From Christensenellales bacterium (GTDB lineage: Bacteria > Bacillota > Clostridia > Christensenellales > UBA3700), in NCBI GenBank assembly GCA_051883415.1, contig JBJETR010000072.1, positions 118,217 to 182,216 of the forward strand: DNA of 64,000 nucleotides. Reading direction: 5' to 3'. The notes beneath the pieces are model-generated. The model made no database searches. It was not told the DNA's origin and saw only the letters and a program-made list of their open reading frames with translations. Both the position numbers and the translations under genes were made by a program. Numbering within the stretch: the stretch's first letter is position 1; the number at the start of each line of letters is the position of its first letter. Shown here piece after piece: positions 3,686 through 50,314 of this stretch.

Positions 3686-3700
3686 ATGATTTTTGTATAA

Positions 3701-4339
3701 TTATTTCGTACCGAAGAGTCTGTCGCCCGCATCGCCGAGTCCCGGGAGGATATAGCAATGCTCGTTGAGCTCTCTATCCAAAGTGGACACGTAAACCTTG
3801 ACGTCGGGGTGGTCGCCGGCTACTCTCTTCAATCCTGCAGGCGCAGCGATGATGCTCATCATGGTGATATCCTTGACGCCTTGCTTTTTGAGGAAGCCGA
3901 TTGCTTCACTAGCACTACCGCCCGTGGCTAGCATTGGATCGAGCAAAAATACCTTCATATTTTCGATGCCTTGAGGTAACTTGCAGTAGTATGCTTGTGG
4001 CTCCATAGTTTCTTCGTCACGATACATGCCGATATGCCCCACTTTGGCGGTTGGCAAAAGGGTATGTATACCGTTGACCATTCCAAGACCTGCTCTAAGG
4101 ATAGGCACGATAGCTACCGACTTCTCCACTATCATAGTTTGGGTGCAAACCTCAAGCGGAGTCTCTATCTCCACTTCTTTGGTAGGGATATCCTTGAGTG
4201 CCTCGAAAGCCATAATGGAAGTAATCTCTTCTACGAGCTCTCTAAACTCTTTCATTCCCGTATTTTTGTCTCTCAAATGTGCGATTTTGTGCTTGATGAG
4301 AGGGTGGTCGAACACCATTACGTTTGGATAATCTTTCAT
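3701..4339 (-). CDS. upp: Uracil phosphoribosyltransferase
   Basis: 212 aa. Full-length Upp pattern ([46 protein letters not shown]). Confidence 0.96.
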
Positions 4340-4356
4340 AATTTTCTCCTATTATT

Positions 4357-5778
4357 TTAGTTGTTGTCCACGCTTTCGGTAGCAACGGTTTCTTCTGCTA
4401 CGGCTTCTTCGGTTGCTTCTTCGCTCTTGACGAGTTCTCCGCCGTAAGCACTACCAACGATAGACTCTTGCTTATTCTTGCCTCTGCCAATCATAAAGAT
4501 TGCGTTGAGAATGATACCGATGAAGGTAGCTACTGCGAGTGCCGAGAAGCTGAGTATACCGATGTTGAGAGTTTTGCCTGCCGCACTCATACCAATACCG
4601 ATAACGAGGATTACGGAACATACAATCATATTCTTACTATCGGAGAAGTCAACCTTTGCTTCTACTATGGTCTTAAGTCCGTTGGCTGCAATCATACCGT
4701 AAAGGATGAGCGAAGCACCGCCGATTACAGGAGCAGGGATTGTGCCGAGCACTGCGCCGAACTTGCTGAAAATACCGAGTACCACAGCAAAGATACCCGC
4801 AACGAACAATACGTTAGGATTGTAGTTTTTGGTGAGGGAAAGAACTGCGGTATTCTCGCCGTAAGTGGTGTTGCAAGGACCGCCGATAAGACCTGCAGCC
4901 ATGGTTGCTACGCCGTCGCCGAGCAAGGTGCGATGTACGCCCGGATCGGTGATGAAGTCCTTGCCGCAAACGATAGAACTTGCATTGACGTCGCCGAGGT
5001 GTTCCATAAAGGTAACGATAGCGATTGGTGCAAACATCAATATAACTTTGGCTAGGTCTGCATTCCAAATCTTGCCGAGAGAGCCGTACCAGCCGAATGC
5101 CTTAGTAAACTCGCTTGGTTGGAACAAAATCCAGCCGCTATTGATTACGGTGTCAAAGCTGACGATACCGAAGCAAAGCGCAACGATATAGCCTACTACG
5201 ATACCGAGCAATACGGGGATAATCTTGAAGAAGCCCTTGGCAAATACCGAAAATCCGATGATGGTTGCCGCCGTTGCAATACCTGCAACTACGTAGCCGA
5301 TAGTTTGCGTAGAGGTTGCGTCGGCTGGTGCAACGAAGTTGTTGATTGCAACAGGTGCAAGGCACATACCGATAACGATGATTACCGGACCTACTACGAT
5401 AGGTGGGAAAAGTTTACGTATAAAGTTGGTGCCGACAAGCTTGATAATCAGCGACAAGATTACGTAAACAAGACCTGTGCAAAGTACTGCGATACTGAGT
5501 TGCGCCATAGCGTAATTCCAAGTTTCCGAACCTATCTCTCCAGCATTGCCCATTTGCATCTGCAATGCAGACAAAAACGCAAAGCTTGAACCTAAGAATA
5601 CAGGTACCTTACGCTTGGTGATGAAGTAAAAAATAATCGTACCTATACCTGCCGAGATAAGAGCGATTGAGATACTCATATTGGCAAGAATCGGTACGAG
5701 AATGGTTGCGCCGAGCATTGCGAAAACGTGTTGGAAGCTTAAGACGGCTTCTCTTGGTGTAATAAAACCTTTTTTCAT
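4357..5778 (-). CDS. uraA: Uracil/xanthine permease (NCS2 family) with an acidic C-terminal tail
   Basis: Polytopic NCS2 pattern (QHVFAMLGATILVP, GENTAVLSLTK). I prefer the start at MKKGF (5778) because AGGGGA sits upstream; the track start at 5841 has no RBS. Sits immediately upstream of upp. Confidence 0.88.
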   Translation of the reverse strand: MKKGFITPREAVLSFQHVFAMLGATILVPILANMSISIALISAGIGTIIFYFITKRKVPVFLGSSFAFLSALQMQMGNAGEIGSETWNYAMAQLSIAVLCTGLVYVILSLIIKLVGTNFIRKLFPPIVVGPVIIVIGMCLAPVAINNFVAPADATSTQTIGYVVAGIATAATIIGFSVFAKGFFKIIPVLLGIVVGYIVALCFGIVSFDTVINSGWILFQPSEFTKAFGWYGSLGKIWNADLAKVILMFAPIAIVTFMEHLGDVNASSIVCGKDFITDPGVHRTLLGDGVATMAAGLIGGPCNTTYGENTAVLSLTKNYNPNVLFVAGIFAVVLGIFSKFGAVLGTIPAPVIGGASLILYGMIAANGLKTIVEAKVDFSDSKNMIVCSVILVIGIGMSAAGKTLNIGILSFSALAVATFIGIILNAIFMIGRGKNKQESIVGSAYGGELVKSEEATEEAVAEETVATESVDNN

Positions 5779-35730: not shown

Positions 35731-36351
35731 ATGTTCAACTATATTTTAGCATTACCCGAGCTTCCTATTCCCGTATCCTACGTTACGATAGGTGCGGCGG
35801 TTATTTTGTTGCTTGGGCTAATCATCGGAGCAAAACAAGGCTTAGTCAAGGCGCTATTCTCTATTTTGTCCACTGCCGGTTCTATCGTTGCGGCTACGTT
35901 CATTATGCCTTATGTCAGCAACTTCTTGATGGGGCAAGCTAAGATTCAAGAGATGATCGCTACTTATGGAACAATTCTCAACAAGGCAGTAGCGGTAATA
36001 TCCTTTATTATGGGTTGGATATTGGCATTCGTTGTACTCAAAATCATATTTGCTATCATCAACAAAATATTCAGTGGGGACGGCGTGCTCGGCACTATCA
36101 ACAGACTGCTCGGTGCGGTATTCGGCTTGGCTGCCTCTGCACTAGTAGTGATTACTATCGTATATTTGATGAATTTGTTTAGTAGTAGCCAATCCATATT
36201 CCAAGAGTTGCTTGACAACGCCAACACCGATCCTGTCGGTGCATTCTTGGTAGAGAACAATTTGCTTGGCAAACTCATAGACCTAATTGCCGAGAAGGTA
36301 CCTGCCTTCGCCGACTTTTTAGCCTCGATAGGCTATACGGCGGCAAGTTAG
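35731..36351 (+). CDS. CvpA-family membrane protein
   Basis: 206 aa, 4-5 TM. The N-terminal layout (short periplasmic stub, GLIIGAKQGLVKALFSIL) is typical of CvpA-like proteins. RBS AAGGAGAT. Confidence 0.7.
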   Translation: MFNYILALPELPIPVSYVTIGAAVILLLGLIIGAKQGLVKALFSILSTAGSIVAATFIMPYVSNFLMGQAKIQEMIATYGTILNKAVAVISFIMGWILAFVVLKIIFAIINKIFSGDGVLGTINRLLGAVFGLAASALVVITIVYLMNLFSSSQSIFQELLDNANTDPVGAFLVENNLLGKLIDLIAEKVPAFADFLASIGYTAAS

Positions 36352-36581
36352 AGCCACAGCGACAACAAATTACCTACAATTCCAAAAAGTCCGCTCAAAA
36401 TTAGAGTGGACTTTTTTATTTGTTGCAACACAACGTACTCTATCAGGCATACGATTGACGTTGCTACGTCGAATATTGCTATGGCATACAAGGTCCTTTT
36501 CTTTGTCCCTATCGTCCAACAAATTAGGTATTTGATAGCTATCGTCACCAAAAATACGCTCACGTTTTCTATAACCGTCAT
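36348..36581 (-). CDS. Possible small membrane protein (77 aa, 2-3 TM), hypothetical
   Basis: A hydrophobic ORF convergent with the cvpA-like gene, with a 4-nt overlap of the ends. No RBS or homology recognised, so it may be spurious. Confidence 0.3.
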   Translation of the reverse strand: MTVIENVSVFLVTIAIKYLICWTIGTKKRTLYAIAIFDVATSIVCLIEYVVLQQIKKSTLILSGLFGIVGNLLSLWL

Positions 36582-36633
36582 ATTGTATTTATATTGTCAA
36601 AATAGCAAATATTGTAAAAATTATGCTAACCTA

Positions 36634-36662
36634 TTGAAAAATACCTATTTTTAATTTATAAT
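36634..36662 (+). promoter_or_regulatory. Sigma-A promoter (TTGAAA-17 nt-TATAAT) placed 9 nt before the acyltransferase ATG (leaderless candidate)
   Basis: TTGAAA at 36634..36639, TATAAT at 36657..36662, ATG at 36672. No Shine-Dalgarno in between. Confidence 0.6.
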
Positions 36663-36671
36663 ATTATAGTC

Positions 36672-37982
36672 ATGAACAAAAAGATTTCCAAGTGGCATAG
36701 GCTGGACAACTCCGCCAAAATATATCCTATGATGGAGCAAAGGGATAAGCACAATCTCTTTCGCATAACTTTCGTTATGAAACAAGACGTTGCGCCCGAC
36801 GTACTCCAAAAGGCTCTAGAGCTGACATTGACACGTTTTCCTTCCTTCAAAGTAAAACTAAAAAAGGGATTTTTTTGGTACTATTTCGACACCAACGACA
36901 TGCCCGCAAAAATATATCCTCTCGATCCGGCGCCTCTGCGCAAGGTCGTTGCCAAGAAGAACAACGGCTATTGCTTTAAGATTAGTTATTACAATAGGTT
37001 GATTACGGGCGACTTTTTCCATGCGCTGTGCGACGGCGTGGGAGCGAGTTGTTTTATGAAGTCTCTCGTCTATACCTACGTCAATCTCTTAGGCTACGAC
37101 GTAGCCTCCGACTGCAAAATTATGACTATAGGCTCGCCTGTTCAGCCATCGGAGCTTGAGGACAGCTTCCTTGCCAATTACAAAAAAGTAAAAATCAAAG
37201 ACCTCAACATATCGTCTCTCAAAGGCGACAAAAAGAACGCCTACCTCATCAAGGGCATAATGTTCGAGGACAACGGCACGGGCATAATCCACGTATACTG
37301 CCCTATTGCCGATTTGCTATCCAAAGCCAAAGAAAAGGGGTGTACCGTCACCGAATTGTTGACGGCAATATTTATCCTTTCGATATACGAGGCGCAGATA
37401 GAGGGCAAAAACGACGACGCTGGCAATATCCAGATATTTTGTCCTATCAATCTTCGCAAGATTTTCAATTCCAATACGCTACTCAACTTCTCGCTCTTCT
37501 CTCGTATAAGCGCCAACCCACACACCGACATGGATATAGATACGCTCATATCCATAGTGCACGATTGCTTGCAACGTGACACCGACAAAGAGCTGCTTAG
37601 CAGTAAGATTTCCACCACCGTGATGGGAGAAAAGTTCTTCTTGATGCGCATAATGCCGCTATTTATCAAGCAGTTTATTTTCAAGATAAGCAATCTTTTC
37701 ATAGGCAAAAACAAAAAGACGGCGACCTTCTCCAACGTGGGCATTTTGCAACTACCCGACGGCTTACGCAACCACGTAGAGTCGGCTTCGGTGAGCATAA
37801 GCGTCAACCAAACCACGCCAATAAGCCTTACGGCTCTCACCACCTACGACACTCTGTGCCTGACGTTTACCAGATGTATCACCGATACCGCAATAGAACA
37901 AGCTTTCGTCAAGCATCTACAAAATCTCGGCATTGACGTATCCGTCAATAGCAATATGTGGGAGGTGAATTATGCGTTGTAA
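36672..37982 (+). CDS. HxxxD-motif acyltransferase (condensation / WS-DGAT / alcohol acetyltransferase-like superfamily)
   Basis: 436 aa. N-terminal WHRLDNSAKIYP and catalytic-type HALCD encoded at 37020..37034. Size and layout resemble proteins annotated as alcohol acetyltransferase in Clostridia, from memory. Confidence 0.65.
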   Translation: MNKKISKWHRLDNSAKIYPMMEQRDKHNLFRITFVMKQDVAPDVLQKALELTLTRFPSFKVKLKKGFFWYYFDTNDMPAKIYPLDPAPLRKVVAKKNNGYCFKISYYNRLITGDFFHALCDGVGASCFMKSLVYTYVNLLGYDVASDCKIMTIGSPVQPSELEDSFLANYKKVKIKDLNISSLKGDKKNAYLIKGIMFEDNGTGIIHVYCPIADLLSKAKEKGCTVTELLTAIFILSIYEAQIEGKNDDAGNIQIFCPINLRKIFNSNTLLNFSLFSRISANPHTDMDIDTLISIVHDCLQRDTDKELLSSKISTTVMGEKFFLMRIMPLFIKQFIFKISNLFIGKNKKTATFSNVGILQLPDGLRNHVESASVSISVNQTTPISLTALTTYDTLCLTFTRCITDTAIEQAFVKHLQNLGIDVSVNSNMWEVNYAL

Positions 37983-38667
37983 GTATTGCGGCGTAGAAGT
38001 CAATGACAACGTCAAGATTTGCCCTATCTGCCACGAAAAGCTCGAGGGTTACACACCCGACGCTCCGTCAATGTACCCCGCCAAGGACAGCGTAAGACGC
38101 AAAAGAAAGCATACTCACTTTACCTTTGACAACTTATATTGGGGCATTGGGCTGGCGGTATGGATATGTTGTCTTGCAGTATGCAAAACCGTTACGCCTA
38201 CTCTGCAATGGCATTGGCTCGCCATATTGCTGATATTGTACGGTTATCTCTTCGTACGCAACACGATACTCTCCAATTCGTCTATAGGGCTCAAAATATT
38301 TACCCAAATCATTATGATTTTGGCAGTATTGATTAGTTCGCTATATATATTCAAGGGGCTCAACCTGTACCACGATCCAAAGTATTGGATACTAGAATAC
38401 GCCTTGCCTATCGTGCTCGGCACGGGACTTGTCATAATGATAGTTTTCGTGTGCATCTTTGCCAAAAGACGTCCGTCACTCATTGTCGACTGCGTATTTA
38501 TGATGCTACTAGGCTATGCGCCTATCATAATGTACCTCACGGGCAACGTCACTCACCTGTGGCCGTCGCTCGCCGTGTCTATCGTAGCTACCTTAGCAAT
38601 CATATCTTGCTTTATGTTCGGCAGAAAAGAATTGATTGACGAACTCAAAAAGAGATTTCATTTATAA
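37972..38667 (+). CDS. Zinc-ribbon N-terminal domain fused to a polytopic membrane domain (DUF6320-like, from memory)
   Basis: 231 aa. CKYCG..(10)..CPICH zinc ribbon, then about 5-6 hydrophobic helices. Overlaps the acyltransferase gene by 11 nt. Confidence 0.6.
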   Translation: MRCKYCGVEVNDNVKICPICHEKLEGYTPDAPSMYPAKDSVRRKRKHTHFTFDNLYWGIGLAVWICCLAVCKTVTPTLQWHWLAILLILYGYLFVRNTILSNSSIGLKIFTQIIMILAVLISSLYIFKGLNLYHDPKYWILEYALPIVLGTGLVIMIVFVCIFAKRRPSLIVDCVFMMLLGYAPIIMYLTGNVTHLWPSLAVSIVATLAIISCFMFGRKELIDELKKRFHL

Positions 38668-38674
38668 ACCGACA

Positions 38675-38702
38675 AACGCCACTATCAAAGTGGCGTTTTA
38701 TC
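38675..38702 (+). terminator. Rho-independent terminator after the acyltransferase pair
   Basis: AACGCCAC (38675..38682), 7-nt loop, GTGGCGTT (38690..38697), then TTTTA. Confidence 0.8.
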
Positions 38703-38725
38703 AATTATTCAATTGTTTTAAGACA

Positions 38726-38755
38726 ACAAAAATACCGAACTCATCGTTCGGTATT
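38726..38755 (-). terminator. Rho-independent terminator after gyrA
   Basis: AATACCGAAC (38731..38740), 5-nt loop, GTTCGGTATT (38746..38755). The A-run upstream on the plus strand gives the U-tract on the minus strand. Confidence 0.85.
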
Positions 38756-38763
38756 TTATTGAT

Positions 38764-41334
38764 TTATTCTTGGTCGGTTGGTTGCTCGGTTGCTTCGGAA
38801 GTGTCCGCCGTGTCGCCTTGTGGCGTTTCGGTTGCTTCTGCCTCGACTTCTTCATCGGCGTGTGGCACTATAGTAAAGCATACGACGTTGCCTTCATCTC
38901 TCATTCTCATAACCTTGACGCCTTGGGTATTTCTACCAATCTTGGAGATTTCGTTGGCTCTTACCCTAATTATAGTGCCGTTGTCGGCTATAATCATCAC
39001 GTCGTCGGTGTCAGGATTGACGAGTTTTAGGTTGACGATATCGCCTGTCTTTTCGTTGAGCACGCCCGCTTTGATACCCTTACCCGCTCTGCCTTGCAAG
39101 GTATATTCGGATATATCCGTTCTCTTGCCGTAGCCGTTGGAGGTAATGGTCAACACTTCGCTACCTTCTATCACCTTGGTCATATCTACCACGTGTTCGC
39201 CCTTGGCTTTATCTATATTGATAGACTTGACGCCTTGGCTAGTTCTACCCGTAGGTCTTACGTCCTTTTCACTAAATCTTATGCACTTGCCGCTGCTGGA
39301 AGCCATAATGATTTCGTCCTCTCCGCTCGTGAGTTGTACTCCGATGAGCTCGTCGCCGTCAACGAGGTTGATTGCAATTTTACCGTTGGACTGTATTCTA
39401 TCGAACTCACCGAGGTCGGTCTTTTTGATAAGTCCGTTTTTGGTAGCCATCATGAGATAGCCTTGGCTTCCCTTTGGCACAGGGATAGCCTTGTTGATTT
39501 GCTCTCCTGGCTCCAAATTGAGCAGGTTGACTATTGCTCTACCCTTAGCGTTTCTGCTTGCCTCAGGGATTTGGTAGCCTTTGATACGATATACTCTGCC
39601 CGTATTGCTAAAGAAGAGAATGTTGTCGTGGGTAGAGGTTGCCATAACGTCCTCTACGAAGTCTTCTTCTTTGGTCTTGTGTGCCGACACGCCCACACCG
39701 CCTCTTCTTTGAGCCTTGTACTCGTCCACAGGCATACGCTTGATATAGCCGTTGTGGGTGGCGGTGATGATGACGTCTTCCTCTTCGATGAGGTCTTCGA
39801 TATCGAGGTCGGAGTAGTCGTAAGTAATCTCCGATCTACGAGGATCGGCATACTTTTCTTTGATTTCCGTCATTTCCGTCTTGATGATATCCACCACTCT
39901 CTGAGTTTTAGCCAAAATATCCTTGAGGTCTGCGATAGTCTTTTCCAATTCTTCGAGTTCACTCTTGAGTTTGTCTACTTCGAGTGCCGTCAATCTCTGC
40001 AATCTCATCTCGAGTATTGCCACGGCTTGACGCTCGCTGAGCTCGAACTTGTCGCACAAGTTGCTTATAGCCACGTTACGGTCATTGGAAGCCTTAATCG
40101 TTGCGATAACTTCGTCGATATTGGCTAGCGCTTTGACCAATCCCAACAAGATATGTTCCTTTTCTTGCGCCTTGTCGAGGTCGTATTGGGTACGGCGAGT
40201 GATGACGGACTTTTGGTGTTTGATATACTCTTCGAGGATTTGCTTGAGGTTGAGCACCTTAGGCGTGCCATCCACGAGTGCAAGCATAATCATAGAGTTG
40301 GACACTTGCAGTTGCGTGTGCTTGAAGAGTAGATTGAGCACGACTTGTGGGTTGGCGTCCTTCTTGACTTCGATGACGATACGCATACCCTCTCTGTCCG
40401 ACAACTCGTGGATATCGCTGATACCCTCCACTCTCTTTTGCTTAACTAGGTCGGCTATGCTCTCGATGAGCTTGGCTTTGTTGACTTGGTAAGGAATCTC
40501 GGTAATGATAATGCTCGACTTGCCGTTAGAATGCTCTTCTATCTCCGTCTTAGCTCTTATTATACAGTTACCTTTACCCGTTCTATAAGCCTTTTTGATA
40601 CCGCTTCCGCCCATAATGTAGGCACCCGTAGGATAGTCAGGGGCAGGGATATATTCCATCAGTTGCTCGATATCGAGGTCAGGATCGTCAAGCAATGCGA
40701 TAGTACCGTCGATGACTTCGGCGAGGTTGTGAGGTGGGATAGAGGTCGCCATACCAACGGCAATACCGTCACTACCGTTGACGAGCAAGTTAGGATAACG
40801 TGCAGGGAGCACGACAGGTTGCTCTCTGGTGTCGTCGAAGTTAGGATAGAAGTCAACCGTCTTTTTGTCGATATCTCTAATCATTTCGTTGGCGATTTTG
40901 CTCATTCTCGCCTCGGTATATCTATATGCGGCGGCAGGATCGCCGTCCACCGAGCCGAAGTTGCCGTGTCCGTCAACGAGGGTACATCTGATAGAGAAGT
41001 CTTGCGCCAATCTTACCAATGCGTCGTATACCGAACTGTCACCGTGTGGATGGTACTTACCGAGCACGTCGCCGACGATGAGGGCGCACTTACGGTGAGG
41101 CTTATCCGCCGTCAATCCGAGTTCGTTCATATCGTAGAGTATTCTTCTATGAACGGGCTTCAGACCGTCTCTTACGTCGGGGATTGCTCTCGACACGTTG
41201 ACCGCCATTGCGTAGGCGATAAAGGACTTCTTCATCTCGCTCTCGACTTCGACGTGTTCGATAGTCGTGCCGGCGAGCATCTCCATTATATCTTTTTTGT
41301 TGTCGATATTCTCGTTATCTTTTTTGATAGCCAT
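38764..41334 (-). CDS. gyrA: DNA gyrase subunit A
   Basis: 856 aa. [26 protein letters not shown] and the active-site region [11 protein letters not shown], followed by C-terminal beta-pinwheel repeats. Has an acidic tail. Confidence 0.98.
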
Positions 41335-48771: not shown

Positions 48772-49446
48772 CTACGACTTATGCGACCAGTTGATAGGTT
48801 GCAAACCATGCAAAGCCAAAAAATCGTTGGCTTTAGAAAAGTGCTTACATTCCAAGAAGCCGTGATAAAAAGACAGTGGGCTTGGATGAACGGCTTTGAG
48901 TACGAGATGCTTTTTGTCGTCGATGAGCCTTGCCTTGGACTTGGCGTATCCGCCCCACAGCATAAATACTATCGGCGTGTCGTGAGCGTTGAGAAGCTCG
49001 ATAATTCTGTCGGTAAATATATCCCAACCGTATTGAGAATGCGACAACGGCTGACCTTTGCGAACACTGAGGTAGCTGTTGAGTAGCAATACGCCTTGTT
49101 CCGCCCACCCCGTCAAGTCGCCGTTGGAATCGGGCTTGATGCCCAAATCGTACTGCAACGCCTTGAAGATGTTGACTAGCGACGGTGGCAGTTTGGTCCC
49201 CTTTTCTACACTAAAACACAGTCCGTTGGCTTGTCCGTAGTCGTGGTATGGATCTTGACCGAGAATTACTACCTTGACCTTGTCGTAGGGGCACAAGTCC
49301 AATGCCCGAAATATTTTTTCTTTGGGTGGAAAACAAGTCGTCGTAGCGTAATCTTGCATTACCGACGCCCACAACCTAGGAAAATACTCTTTTTCTCCTT
49401 CGTATTTTAGCAGTTGTCTCCAACTTTCGTCTGCGATTTTTACCAT
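48772..49446 (-). CDS. ung: Uracil-DNA glycosylase (family 1)
   Basis: 224 aa. Contains GQDPYH, GVLLLN and HPSPLS motifs. Confidence 0.96.
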   Translation of the reverse strand: MVKIADESWRQLLKYEGEKEYFPRLWASVMQDYATTTCFPPKEKIFRALDLCPYDKVKVVILGQDPYHDYGQANGLCFSVEKGTKLPPSLVNIFKALQYDLGIKPDSNGDLTGWAEQGVLLLNSYLSVRKGQPLSHSQYGWDIFTDRIIELLNAHDTPIVFMLWGGYAKSKARLIDDKKHLVLKAVHPSPLSFYHGFLECKHFSKANDFLALHGLQPINWSHKS

Positions 49447-49519
49447 AGCAACATTATATTGCGGACGTGAGTTTTTGTCAACGGTTGACTTTGCAATAGC
49501 TTTGATTTACAATGATATT

Positions 49520-50314
49520 ATGATAGATACGCATACACATTGTTATCACTCGCAAGACAGCCGGACTCCCGCTCGCGATATGATAGAAGGAGCAATAGCC
49601 AAAGGCTTGCAATATATTGCGCTTACCGACCACTACGACCTCGATATGCTTGGCTTTCCTCAAGTTCCGCAGATAGATTTGCCACGGCATTTTGAAGAAC
49701 TCACTATCCTAAAAGAACAATACGAAGGCAAAATCCAACTCGCAATAGGTATAGAATGCGGTTGGGCAAAGAAGGTCGAGGACGATTACCTCCGCAATCT
49801 TGCGCCTTACAGGATAGATATGACTATCAATTCCGTACATATGGTAGACGGCAAGGACTGCTATGCCGAGGGCTATTACGACGAATTGCCTATGCAAAAG
49901 TGCTACGACGACTATTTGGATAGCGTGATTGACTCGCTTGACGCACCCTATCGCTTCGACAGCATAGGGCATTTGGGATACATAATGCGCAAAGCACCTT
50001 ACCCCGATCCGATTATGAAGTATAAGCAGTTTGGCGACAAACTCGACCATATTCTTCGTACGATAATCGACAAAGGCGTGGCTTTGGAAGTCAATACACA
50101 TACCAAGAATTTGCCTATTAGATGTTTGCCTACTATCGAGATTTTGACAAGATATCGCGAGATGGGCGGAGAATTGCTGACCTTTGGCTCCGACGCCCAC
50201 CAGCCAACCAGACTCGCGGACAAGTATAACGAAACCATGGAACTTCTAAAAGCTCTTGGATACCAATATATTTTCAAATATTTATCGCACGAGCCTATCG
50301 CTTGCAAAATTTAA
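49520..50314 (+). CDS. PHP-family histidinol-phosphatase-like hydrolase
   Basis: MIDTHTHCYHSQDS N-terminus (the HxH PHP motif), LTDH, and GSDAH near the C-terminus. The ATG at 49520 is preferred over the TTG at 49475. Confidence 0.8.
   Translation: MIDTHTHCYHSQDSRTPARDMIEGAIAKGLQYIALTDHYDLDMLGFPQVPQIDLPRHFEELTILKEQYEGKIQLAIGIECGWAKKVEDDYLRNLAPYRIDMTINSVHMVDGKDCYAEGYYDELPMQKCYDDYLDSVIDSLDAPYRFDSIGHLGYIMRKAPYPDPIMKYKQFGDKLDHILRTIIDKGVALEVNTHTKNLPIRCLPTIEILTRYREMGGELLTFGSDAHQPTRLADKYNETMELLKALGYQYIFKYLSHEPIACKI

Follow-up and report, generated by a model that had tools for sequence, protein, structure and literature searches.

The 64-kb stretch of Christensenellales DNA analysed here (contig JBJETR010000072.1, positions 118,217 to 182,216; hereafter the window) carries on its + strand two overlapping genes, one for a soluble acyltransferase and one for a small membrane protein. 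The two open reading frames (ORFs) occupy 36672..37982 (436 aa) and 37972..38667 (231 aa) and share 11 nt (37972..37982); features given below are on the + strand unless stated otherwise. The initial annotation of this DNA had described an HxxxD acyltransferase translationally coupled to a zinc-ribbon membrane protein and expressed from an apparently leaderless transcript. The ORF listing agrees with it on both lengths and on the overlap, and the other elements that it described, namely the HALCD motif, the zinc ribbon, the promoter and the terminator, are all in place. The first gene, recognized by its ORF, fold and homologues, begins with an ATG that has no Shine-Dalgarno sequence, and the second is identified by its match to the Pfam family DUF6320 (PF19845). 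What is new here is an HxxxD family that comes with a membrane subunit of its own and with an esterase that recurs in many loci and is in some species fused to the enzyme.

The acyltransferase is a predicted enzyme of the HxxxD (CAT-like/condensation) superfamily with a two-lobed fold. Its AlphaFold model, built from a 29-sequence alignment, has a mean predicted local distance difference test score (pLDDT) of 87.8. Foldseek returned 248 matches in the PDB at E <= 0.001; the 50 matches listed are without exception HxxxD superfamily members. They include the condensation domains of surfactin and tyrocidine synthesis, PapA5, TRI3/TRI101, BAHD and WS/DGAT, with E values of 1e-15 to 1e-12 and TM-scores of 0.5-0.65, at only 8-14% identity. 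The catalytic-type motif HALCD (37020..37034; residues 117-121), on which the initial superfamily assignment had been based, provides His117 and Asp121 and is followed by Gly124. These three residues (HxxxDxxG) do not vary in any of the 89 homologues compared, which reach down to ~30% identity and include esterase-fused forms and forms without a DUF6320 partner. R55, G66, E161, D164, P258, R262, N272, F273, P329, K333 and G357 are also invariant, and N260 is kept in 88 of the 89. Both the fold matches of the model and the invariant His, Asp and Gly thus support the assignment to this superfamily.

Within the superfamily, the enzyme is placed less easily. It reaches 21.3 bits against Pfam PapA_C (PF16911; cut-off 30) and 17.9 bits against AATase (PF07247; cut-off 22), the latter over residues 217-266 only. 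Among its homologues, 16/29 match AATase at E <= 0.01 (best E 9e-11) and 11/29 match PapA_C at the same threshold. The label of alcohol acetyltransferase, which the initial annotation had mentioned for this type of gene pair, is weak, because the window enzyme itself stays below the AATase threshold. Pfam Condensation matched neither the acyltransferase nor its homologues, and no Pfam match to WS/DGAT was obtained for the acyltransferase (profile against PDB 6chj, E = 1.8). No NCBIfam model matched either protein of the pair, and a search of the acyltransferase and its 29-member profile against the sequences of PDB chains gave nothing significant. At least 390 homologues were found, all of which are named either 'hypothetical' or 'NRPS condensation-like' (NRPS, nonribosomal peptide synthetase), the latter being the name given to a homologue by one source. 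On these comparisons the acyltransferase passes no curated family threshold and is best regarded as a clostridial family of its own. As the initial annotation had suggested, it looks soluble, with no transmembrane segment (maximum KD19 = 1.39). Its most hydrophobic and amphipathic segment, residues 322-345 (FFLMRIMPLFIKQFIFKISNLFIG, 37635..37706), has the top values in the protein for hydrophobic moment (0.46) and mean hydrophobicity (0.32). In the model this segment holds two helices, H323-327 and H330-343; P329 and K333 within it are invariant, and R326 and L330 are nearly so. This helix pair is a candidate site for contact with the membrane or with a partner protein.

The downstream gene encodes a clear DUF6320 member (88.7 bits against a cut-off of 29.9, residues 43-231). 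The initial annotation had counted five to six transmembrane helices; the membrane protein stands, and six helices are predicted, not five. The structural model (pLDDT 80) likewise contains six long helices. The protein starts with MRCKYCGVEVNDNVKICPIC, a CxxC-10-CxxC arrangement of Cys3, Cys6, Cys17 and Cys20 (37978..38031). These four cysteines, already read as a zinc ribbon from the single sequence, are invariant in 31 diverse DUF6320 members, and each of the 68 loci where the two genes are paired has the motif. Pfam Zn_Ribbon_1 remains below threshold on this protein (20.4 against 25 bits). By its four conserved cysteines, the N-terminus appears to be a zinc ribbon, with metal binding predicted. 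Ten K/R residues lie ahead of the first transmembrane helix, and K/R counts under the positive-inside rule place the zinc ribbon, the loop at residues 164-168 and the C-terminal tail in the cytoplasm, with both termini inside. The tail (KELIDELKKRFHL, 38626..38664) is basic and aromatic and is conserved in character, following the pattern E-x-[KR]-[KR]-[KR]-[FL]-[HFY]-hydrophobic across the family.

Across the 31 diverse members, only the four ribbon cysteines, P18 and W80 are invariant. None of the conserved positions is a polar transmembrane residue, which argues for DUF6320 as a scaffold and not as an enzyme or an ion-coupled transporter, and the overall pattern would fit a scaffold better. 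The model found no match among PDB folds (best E 0.46, generic helical bundles only). More than 2,178 DUF6320 proteins came up in a profile search, all of them ~230-246 aa long among the matches listed, and the family forms over 2,000 clusters at 90% identity. A literature search for DUF6320/PF19845 found no paper mentioning the family. We also observed a longer DUF6320 homologue of 276 aa (locus L033, 6280-7107), which carries two N-terminal zinc ribbons in tandem.

The nearest relatives of the window acyltransferase are encoded by Christensenellales metagenome-assembled genomes, at 98% identity. In a scan of one genome per species, at least 558 relatives were confirmed, and the best 80 of the 558 were used for the locus counts. 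In 68 of these 80 species loci, the acyltransferase gene is followed directly by a DUF6320 gene of the same strand; three of the exceptions are at contig ends (L015, L026 and L046), and in L071 the contig stops ~285 nt past the acyltransferase gene, making this locus uninformative on the partner. Of the 68 pairs, 27 overlap by 11 nt and 5 by 20 nt; in the rest, the genes are mostly 0-100 nt apart. In the reverse direction, starting from diverse DUF6320 genes on long contigs, the acyltransferase was found directly upstream in 8/8 cases. The upstream proteins were confirmed by hidden Markov model search (E <= 1e-10), and one of them is 30% identical to the window enzyme (E 3e-79). The initial annotation had stated that the pairing recurs in Clostridia, and it had made its reading depend on conservation of both the pairing and the His/Asp residues; both are conserved, the pairing in 68/80 loci and 8/8 reverse look-ups and the residues in 89/89 homologues.

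The order, strand and tight spacing of the pair are kept from 98% to ~30% identity, and all other neighbours vary with phylogeny. In the window, the pair sits among housekeeping genes, with ftsH, a yyaC-like spore protease gene and cvpA on its upstream side and gyrA and gyrB on the other. The recurring neighbours ROK kinase, CvpA, YyaC, GyrA and FtsH were considered as functional partners and rejected, as they reflect housekeeping synteny among close relatives. Near the pair, the neighbour analysis found no conserved gene for an adenylation enzyme, for a carrier protein or for any other biosynthetic function. The PADLOC and PHROGs models gave no match for the pair, which by this measure belongs neither to defence systems nor to phage. 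A 669-aa protein joining the acyltransferase to DUF6320 (P0300, from a 4-kb ENA contig) was not taken as a Rosetta-stone fusion. It is probably a deletion or an assembly artefact because the first CxxC of the ribbon is absent and the fusion occurs once, on this one contig.

A third component emerges from the sister lineages, which the earlier description did not contain. In 29 of 88 distinct loci, the cluster also includes, on the same strand, a gene for a family-IV esterase (Abhydrolase_3/Say1-like). These linked esterases score 169-180 bits against Abhydrolase_3 and 59-60 bits against Say1_Mug180, for which the cut-off is 21. The esterase gene is directly upstream of the acyltransferase gene in 19 species loci and downstream of DUF6320 in four others (L044, L045, L085 and L088), and in three species (L052, L067 and L083) an in-frame fusion places the esterase at the N-terminal end of the acyltransferase. 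Because its position varies and the fusion is repeated, the arrangement bears the classical signature of a functional link between esterase and acyltransferase. In the clade of the window (L001-L042), the two-gene core occurs without further members. As a separate observation, a PdxA-family dehydrogenase gene is coupled directly upstream of the acyltransferase gene in 10 loci of another clade (L081, at 3687-4697, and L082, L087, L046, L047, L049, L050, L054, L060 and L064). The two genes overlap by 4 nt in L081 and L082, and L087 has the order esterase, PdxA, acyltransferase, DUF6320.

The pair is preceded by a sigma-70-type promoter at 36634..36662, with TTGAAA (36634..36639), a 17-nt spacer and TATAAT (36657..36662), which matches 11 of the 12 consensus positions. 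Only 9 nt, ATTATAGTC, separate TATAAT from the ATG at 36672, just as the initial annotation had it. In the whole window, 14 sites match TTGACA-N16-18-TATAAT at 11/12 or better, compared with 1.5 +/- 1.2 in Markov-1 simulations, and nearly all of the 14 are upstream of genes. Therefore, such sites are not chance occurrences, and this Christensenellales genome uses near-consensus sigma-70 promoters. Downstream of the pair, an intrinsic terminator at 38674..38702 consists of a hairpin (38674..38698) followed by UUUUAU. Its fold of -14.5 kcal/mol (z = -6.4) was equalled by 0/200 shuffles, confirming the clean terminator noted previously. On the upstream side, a terminator scan placed the terminator of the cvpA-like gene at 36384..36416 (-17.6 kcal/mol, z = -6.2), which keeps read-through from reaching the pair. 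With its own strong promoter, its own terminator and the cvpA terminator upstream, the acyltransferase and DUF6320 genes therefore form a self-contained transcription unit, a two-gene operon. A second hairpin at 38729..38757 (-14.7 kcal/mol, z = -5.8) precedes the convergent gyrA gene; it is a perfect 12-bp hairpin with flanking A-runs and T-runs, scores as a terminator on both strands, and is apparently common to the pair and gyrA. An Rfam scan of 36200..38900 found no riboswitch or leader RNA, and its sole match was sub-threshold and fell on the cvpA terminator. Between that terminator and the promoter of the pair, a 77-aa hydrophobic ORF on the - strand (36348..36581) has no Pfam match and is uncertain as a gene.

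The two genes of the operon differ in their translation signals. None of GGAG, GAGG or AGGA is found in the 40 nt 5' of the acyltransferase ATG, in agreement with the initial annotation, and a clear GGAGG-type Shine-Dalgarno sequence precedes most other genes of the window. The start codon is constrained from both sides. An in-frame TAA lies upstream at 36660..36662, and the N-terminal motif W8-x-x-L-D-N-(S/A)-A-K-I-(Y/F)-P19 lies downstream (36693..36728), with W8, L11, D12, N13 and P19 each present in 88/89 homologues and the remaining sequence gapped. Because of this stop codon and the conserved residues from W8 to P19, 36672 is the only start that the sequence would allow. The DUF6320 gene, instead, has a strong Shine-Dalgarno sequence, GGGAGGTG (37960..37967), which is encoded within the W-E-V codons of the acyltransferase C-terminus, and in virtually all 68 paired loci the DUF6320 start follows a GGAGG-type motif. 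DUF6320 would thus be translated from a strong Shine-Dalgarno sequence embedded in the end of the acyltransferase gene, and the acyltransferase would be translated without one, probably from an mRNA with little or no leader.

Comparison among relatives lends support to this architecture. In 20 of the 30 closest species, a -10-like hexamer ends 6-9 nt before the ATG and no Shine-Dalgarno sequence is present. The other 10 have a Shine-Dalgarno sequence, and 6 of those 10 start with GTG; the arrangement with the -10 box next to the start is always paired with ATG. The remaining upstream sequence diverges between the lineages that share this arrangement, and for that reason the arrangement itself appears to be under selection. 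Given the 9-nt gap, transcription from the usual start site would leave a leader of 0-3 nt. A -10 box a few nucleotides from the start, an AUG start codon and the lack of a Shine-Dalgarno sequence, which together characterize leaderless genes, are all seen here, and the mRNA is probably leaderless or near-leaderless. Against this, the 9-nt gap exceeds by 2-3 nt the optimal distance for transcription to begin at the very A of the ATG, and a weaker promoter-like site, TTGTCA-16-AAAAAT (36594..36621), could give a 50-nt leader, also without a Shine-Dalgarno sequence. We consider such an upstream start rather unlikely. The site matches the consensus at 9/12, far worse than the 11/12 promoter; the -10 box has been kept close to the ATG in 20 of the 30 species despite diverged upstream sequence; and a Shine-Dalgarno sequence was gained in the lineages that lost this arrangement. 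The switch between a leaderless-type ATG and a Shine-Dalgarno sequence or GTG among orthologues offers a natural experiment on translation initiation in Clostridia. The window also holds a second leaderless candidate, a UDG-superfamily gene on the - strand (48772..49446). Its promoter (49481..49453) is a perfect TTGACA-17-TATAAT that ends 6 nt before the ATG, again with no Shine-Dalgarno sequence, and a PHP-domain gene (49475..50314) runs divergently from it.

Building on the gene structure, fold, motif conservation, gene linkage, and esterase linkage and fusion established above, we infer a physical complex, ester rather than amide chemistry, a donor and an acceptor, as follows. The pair would be a membrane-docked O-acyltransferase that acts on a lipophilic acceptor, its reaction being reversed by the esterase where one is present; we give this reading an even chance. 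DUF6320 would be a non-catalytic anchor or substrate gate that holds the acyltransferase at the inner face of the membrane, with docking through its zinc ribbon and/or its C-terminal tail. His117 would serve as the general base, and the acyl group would come from a thioester donor, either acyl-CoA or acyl-ACP (acyl carrier protein). The acceptor would be a hydroxyl group of a lipophilic, membrane-partitioned molecule, so that an ester is formed. Since the esterase is in the same cluster or fused in sister lineages, it may remove the acyl group there, giving a cycle of acylation and deacylation, and the lineage of the window would retain only the two-gene core of this module. As precedents, an HxxxD acyltransferase is teamed with an esterase of the hormone-sensitive-lipase type in mycobacteria, where Tgs and LipY act on triacylglycerol. 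Yeast has such a combination for sterols in Atf2 and Say1 (PMC8857485).

Several observations weigh against this proposal. The physical contact between the acyltransferase and DUF6320 is a prediction. The partner is also not obligatory for every member of the acyltransferase family, because a clade of seven species (L034, L035 and L037-L041) and L070 have the acyltransferase without an adjoining DUF6320 gene. In that clade, a ROK-family kinase gene takes the place of DUF6320, and the His, Asp and Gly residues are intact. In most of its loci (not L038 or L041), the acyltransferase gene starts with GTG after a conserved stretch that resembles the 3' end of a coding gene, which suggests that it is coupled to an upstream gene. 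The 64-kb window contains no esterase homologue, and none adjoins the pair in the clade of the window. HxxxD enzymes make amides too, and the case for an ester comes only from the esterase link. Long-chain acyl-CoA is made only in small amounts by many Firmicutes, which leaves the donor uncertain. Finally, the role of DUF6320 could be export instead of anchoring.

In this last reading, DUF6320 would export or flip a product that has been acylated in the cytoplasm or in the inner leaflet, and its six transmembrane helices, its strict gene linkage and the precedent of yeast Atf2, whose acetylation marks sterols for export (PMC8857485), would all fit this role. However, the family lacks conserved polar or charged transmembrane residues, its model resembles no transporter in the PDB (best E 0.46), and no ATPase or other energizing partner is conserved nearby; on balance we find an exporter unlikely. 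That the two proteins do not cooperate at all, their adjacency being operon hitch-hiking, is suggested by the acyltransferase homologues that have no partner. We regard it as extremely improbable, as order, strand and spacing have been held down to ~30% identity while other neighbours vary, and as all 8 reverse look-ups recovered the pair.

The chemistry could differ as well. A stand-alone condensation-type N-acyltransferase that forms an amide at the membrane, such as an N-acyl amino acid, an N-acyl amine or a lipoamino acid, would be in keeping with the NRPS condensation domains as best structural matches and with the one 'NRPS condensation-like' name. It is made improbable by the failure to match Pfam Condensation, by the lack of carrier protein and adenylation genes nearby, and by the nature of the recurrent fused or adjacent partner, which is a carboxylesterase and not an amidase. 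In mycobacteria, Tgs and LipY combine an HxxxD acyltransferase with an esterase of the hormone-sensitive-lipase type on triacylglycerol. By analogy, the window enzyme could be a WS/DGAT-like synthase of neutral lipids (triacylglycerol or wax ester), and the family-IV esterase could be the mobilizing lipase. The esterase does belong to the hormone-sensitive-lipase family, WS/DGAT is among the fold matches, and the only PDB sequence match, though insignificant, is to WS/DGAT with a common PxN/SLR strand. Yet that match has an E value of 1.8, no WS/DGAT Pfam match was found, and WS/DGATs need no dedicated membrane partner. In addition, these anaerobes are not known to store neutral lipids. We hold this reading, too, to be of small probability.

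A more specific version of the membrane-docked O-acyltransferase can be imagined for the gut. The module could serve Christensenellales and other gut Clostridia as a short-chain acyl-CoA:bile-acid (or steroid) 3-O-acyltransferase system, with the Say1-like esterase as the deacylating enzyme. Reviews on the 3-O-acetyl, propionyl, butyryl and valeryl cholic acids of Christensenella name no enzyme. Bile-acid 3-O-acylation is lacking in C. massiliensis and Luoshenia tenuis and is present in other Christensenella species, namely C. minuta, C. hongkongensis and C. intestinihominis (PMC11085954, PMC12325933). The acyltransferase family is also found in genomes from digesters, groundwater and termite guts; therefore bile acids cannot be its ancestral substrate, and we consider the bile-acid system very improbable. 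If true, the module would correspond in bacteria to the cycle of sterol acetylation that Atf2 and Say1 run in yeast.

Our analysis provides the first functional context for DUF6320. The module is widespread in Clostridia, abundant gut commensals included, and we found no paper on either protein. If membrane lipids, sterols or bile acids are acylated by it, it would supply a missing piece of how these anaerobes handle lipids and xenobiotics.

Besides Pfam DUF6320 itself, four known systems come closest to the pair. The NRPS condensation domains (for example SrfA-C, PDB 8f7f) are the top fold matches (E 2.5e-15, 12% identity). Unlike them, the window enzyme has no Pfam Condensation match and is found outside any carrier protein or adenylation context. 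WS/DGAT (PDB 6chj) has the HxxxD fold (Foldseek E 6e-13) and the 'fvPinlR' strand in common with the window enzyme, but has no dedicated membrane partner gene. PapA5 and the mycobacterial polyketide-associated acyltransferases (PDB 1q9j; PapA_C PF16911) are, like the window enzyme, stand-alone proteins of ~420 aa with the two-lobed HxxxD fold (Foldseek E 2.5e-14, TM-score 0.58-0.65, ~13% identity), and these mycobacterial enzymes esterify a lipid alcohol at the membrane. Unlike PapA5, the window pair has neither a polyketide synthase nor an MmpL transporter nearby, and its partner is a small zinc-ribbon protein without a PDB fold match. The yeast alcohol acetyltransferase Atf2 and the steryl-acetate hydrolase Say1 run an acetylation and deacetylation cycle on sterols (PMC8857485). 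In contrast to this system, the bacterial enzymes are predicted to be cytoplasmic with a separate membrane subunit, the window enzyme falls below the AATase cut-off, and the esterase, absent next to the pair in the lineage of the window, is linked or fused in the 29/88 loci of sister clades. Like Atf2 and Say1, however, the module combines the Pfam families AATase (PF07247) and Say1_Mug180 (PF10340), as the acyltransferase homologues match the former and the linked or fused esterase passes the threshold of the latter.

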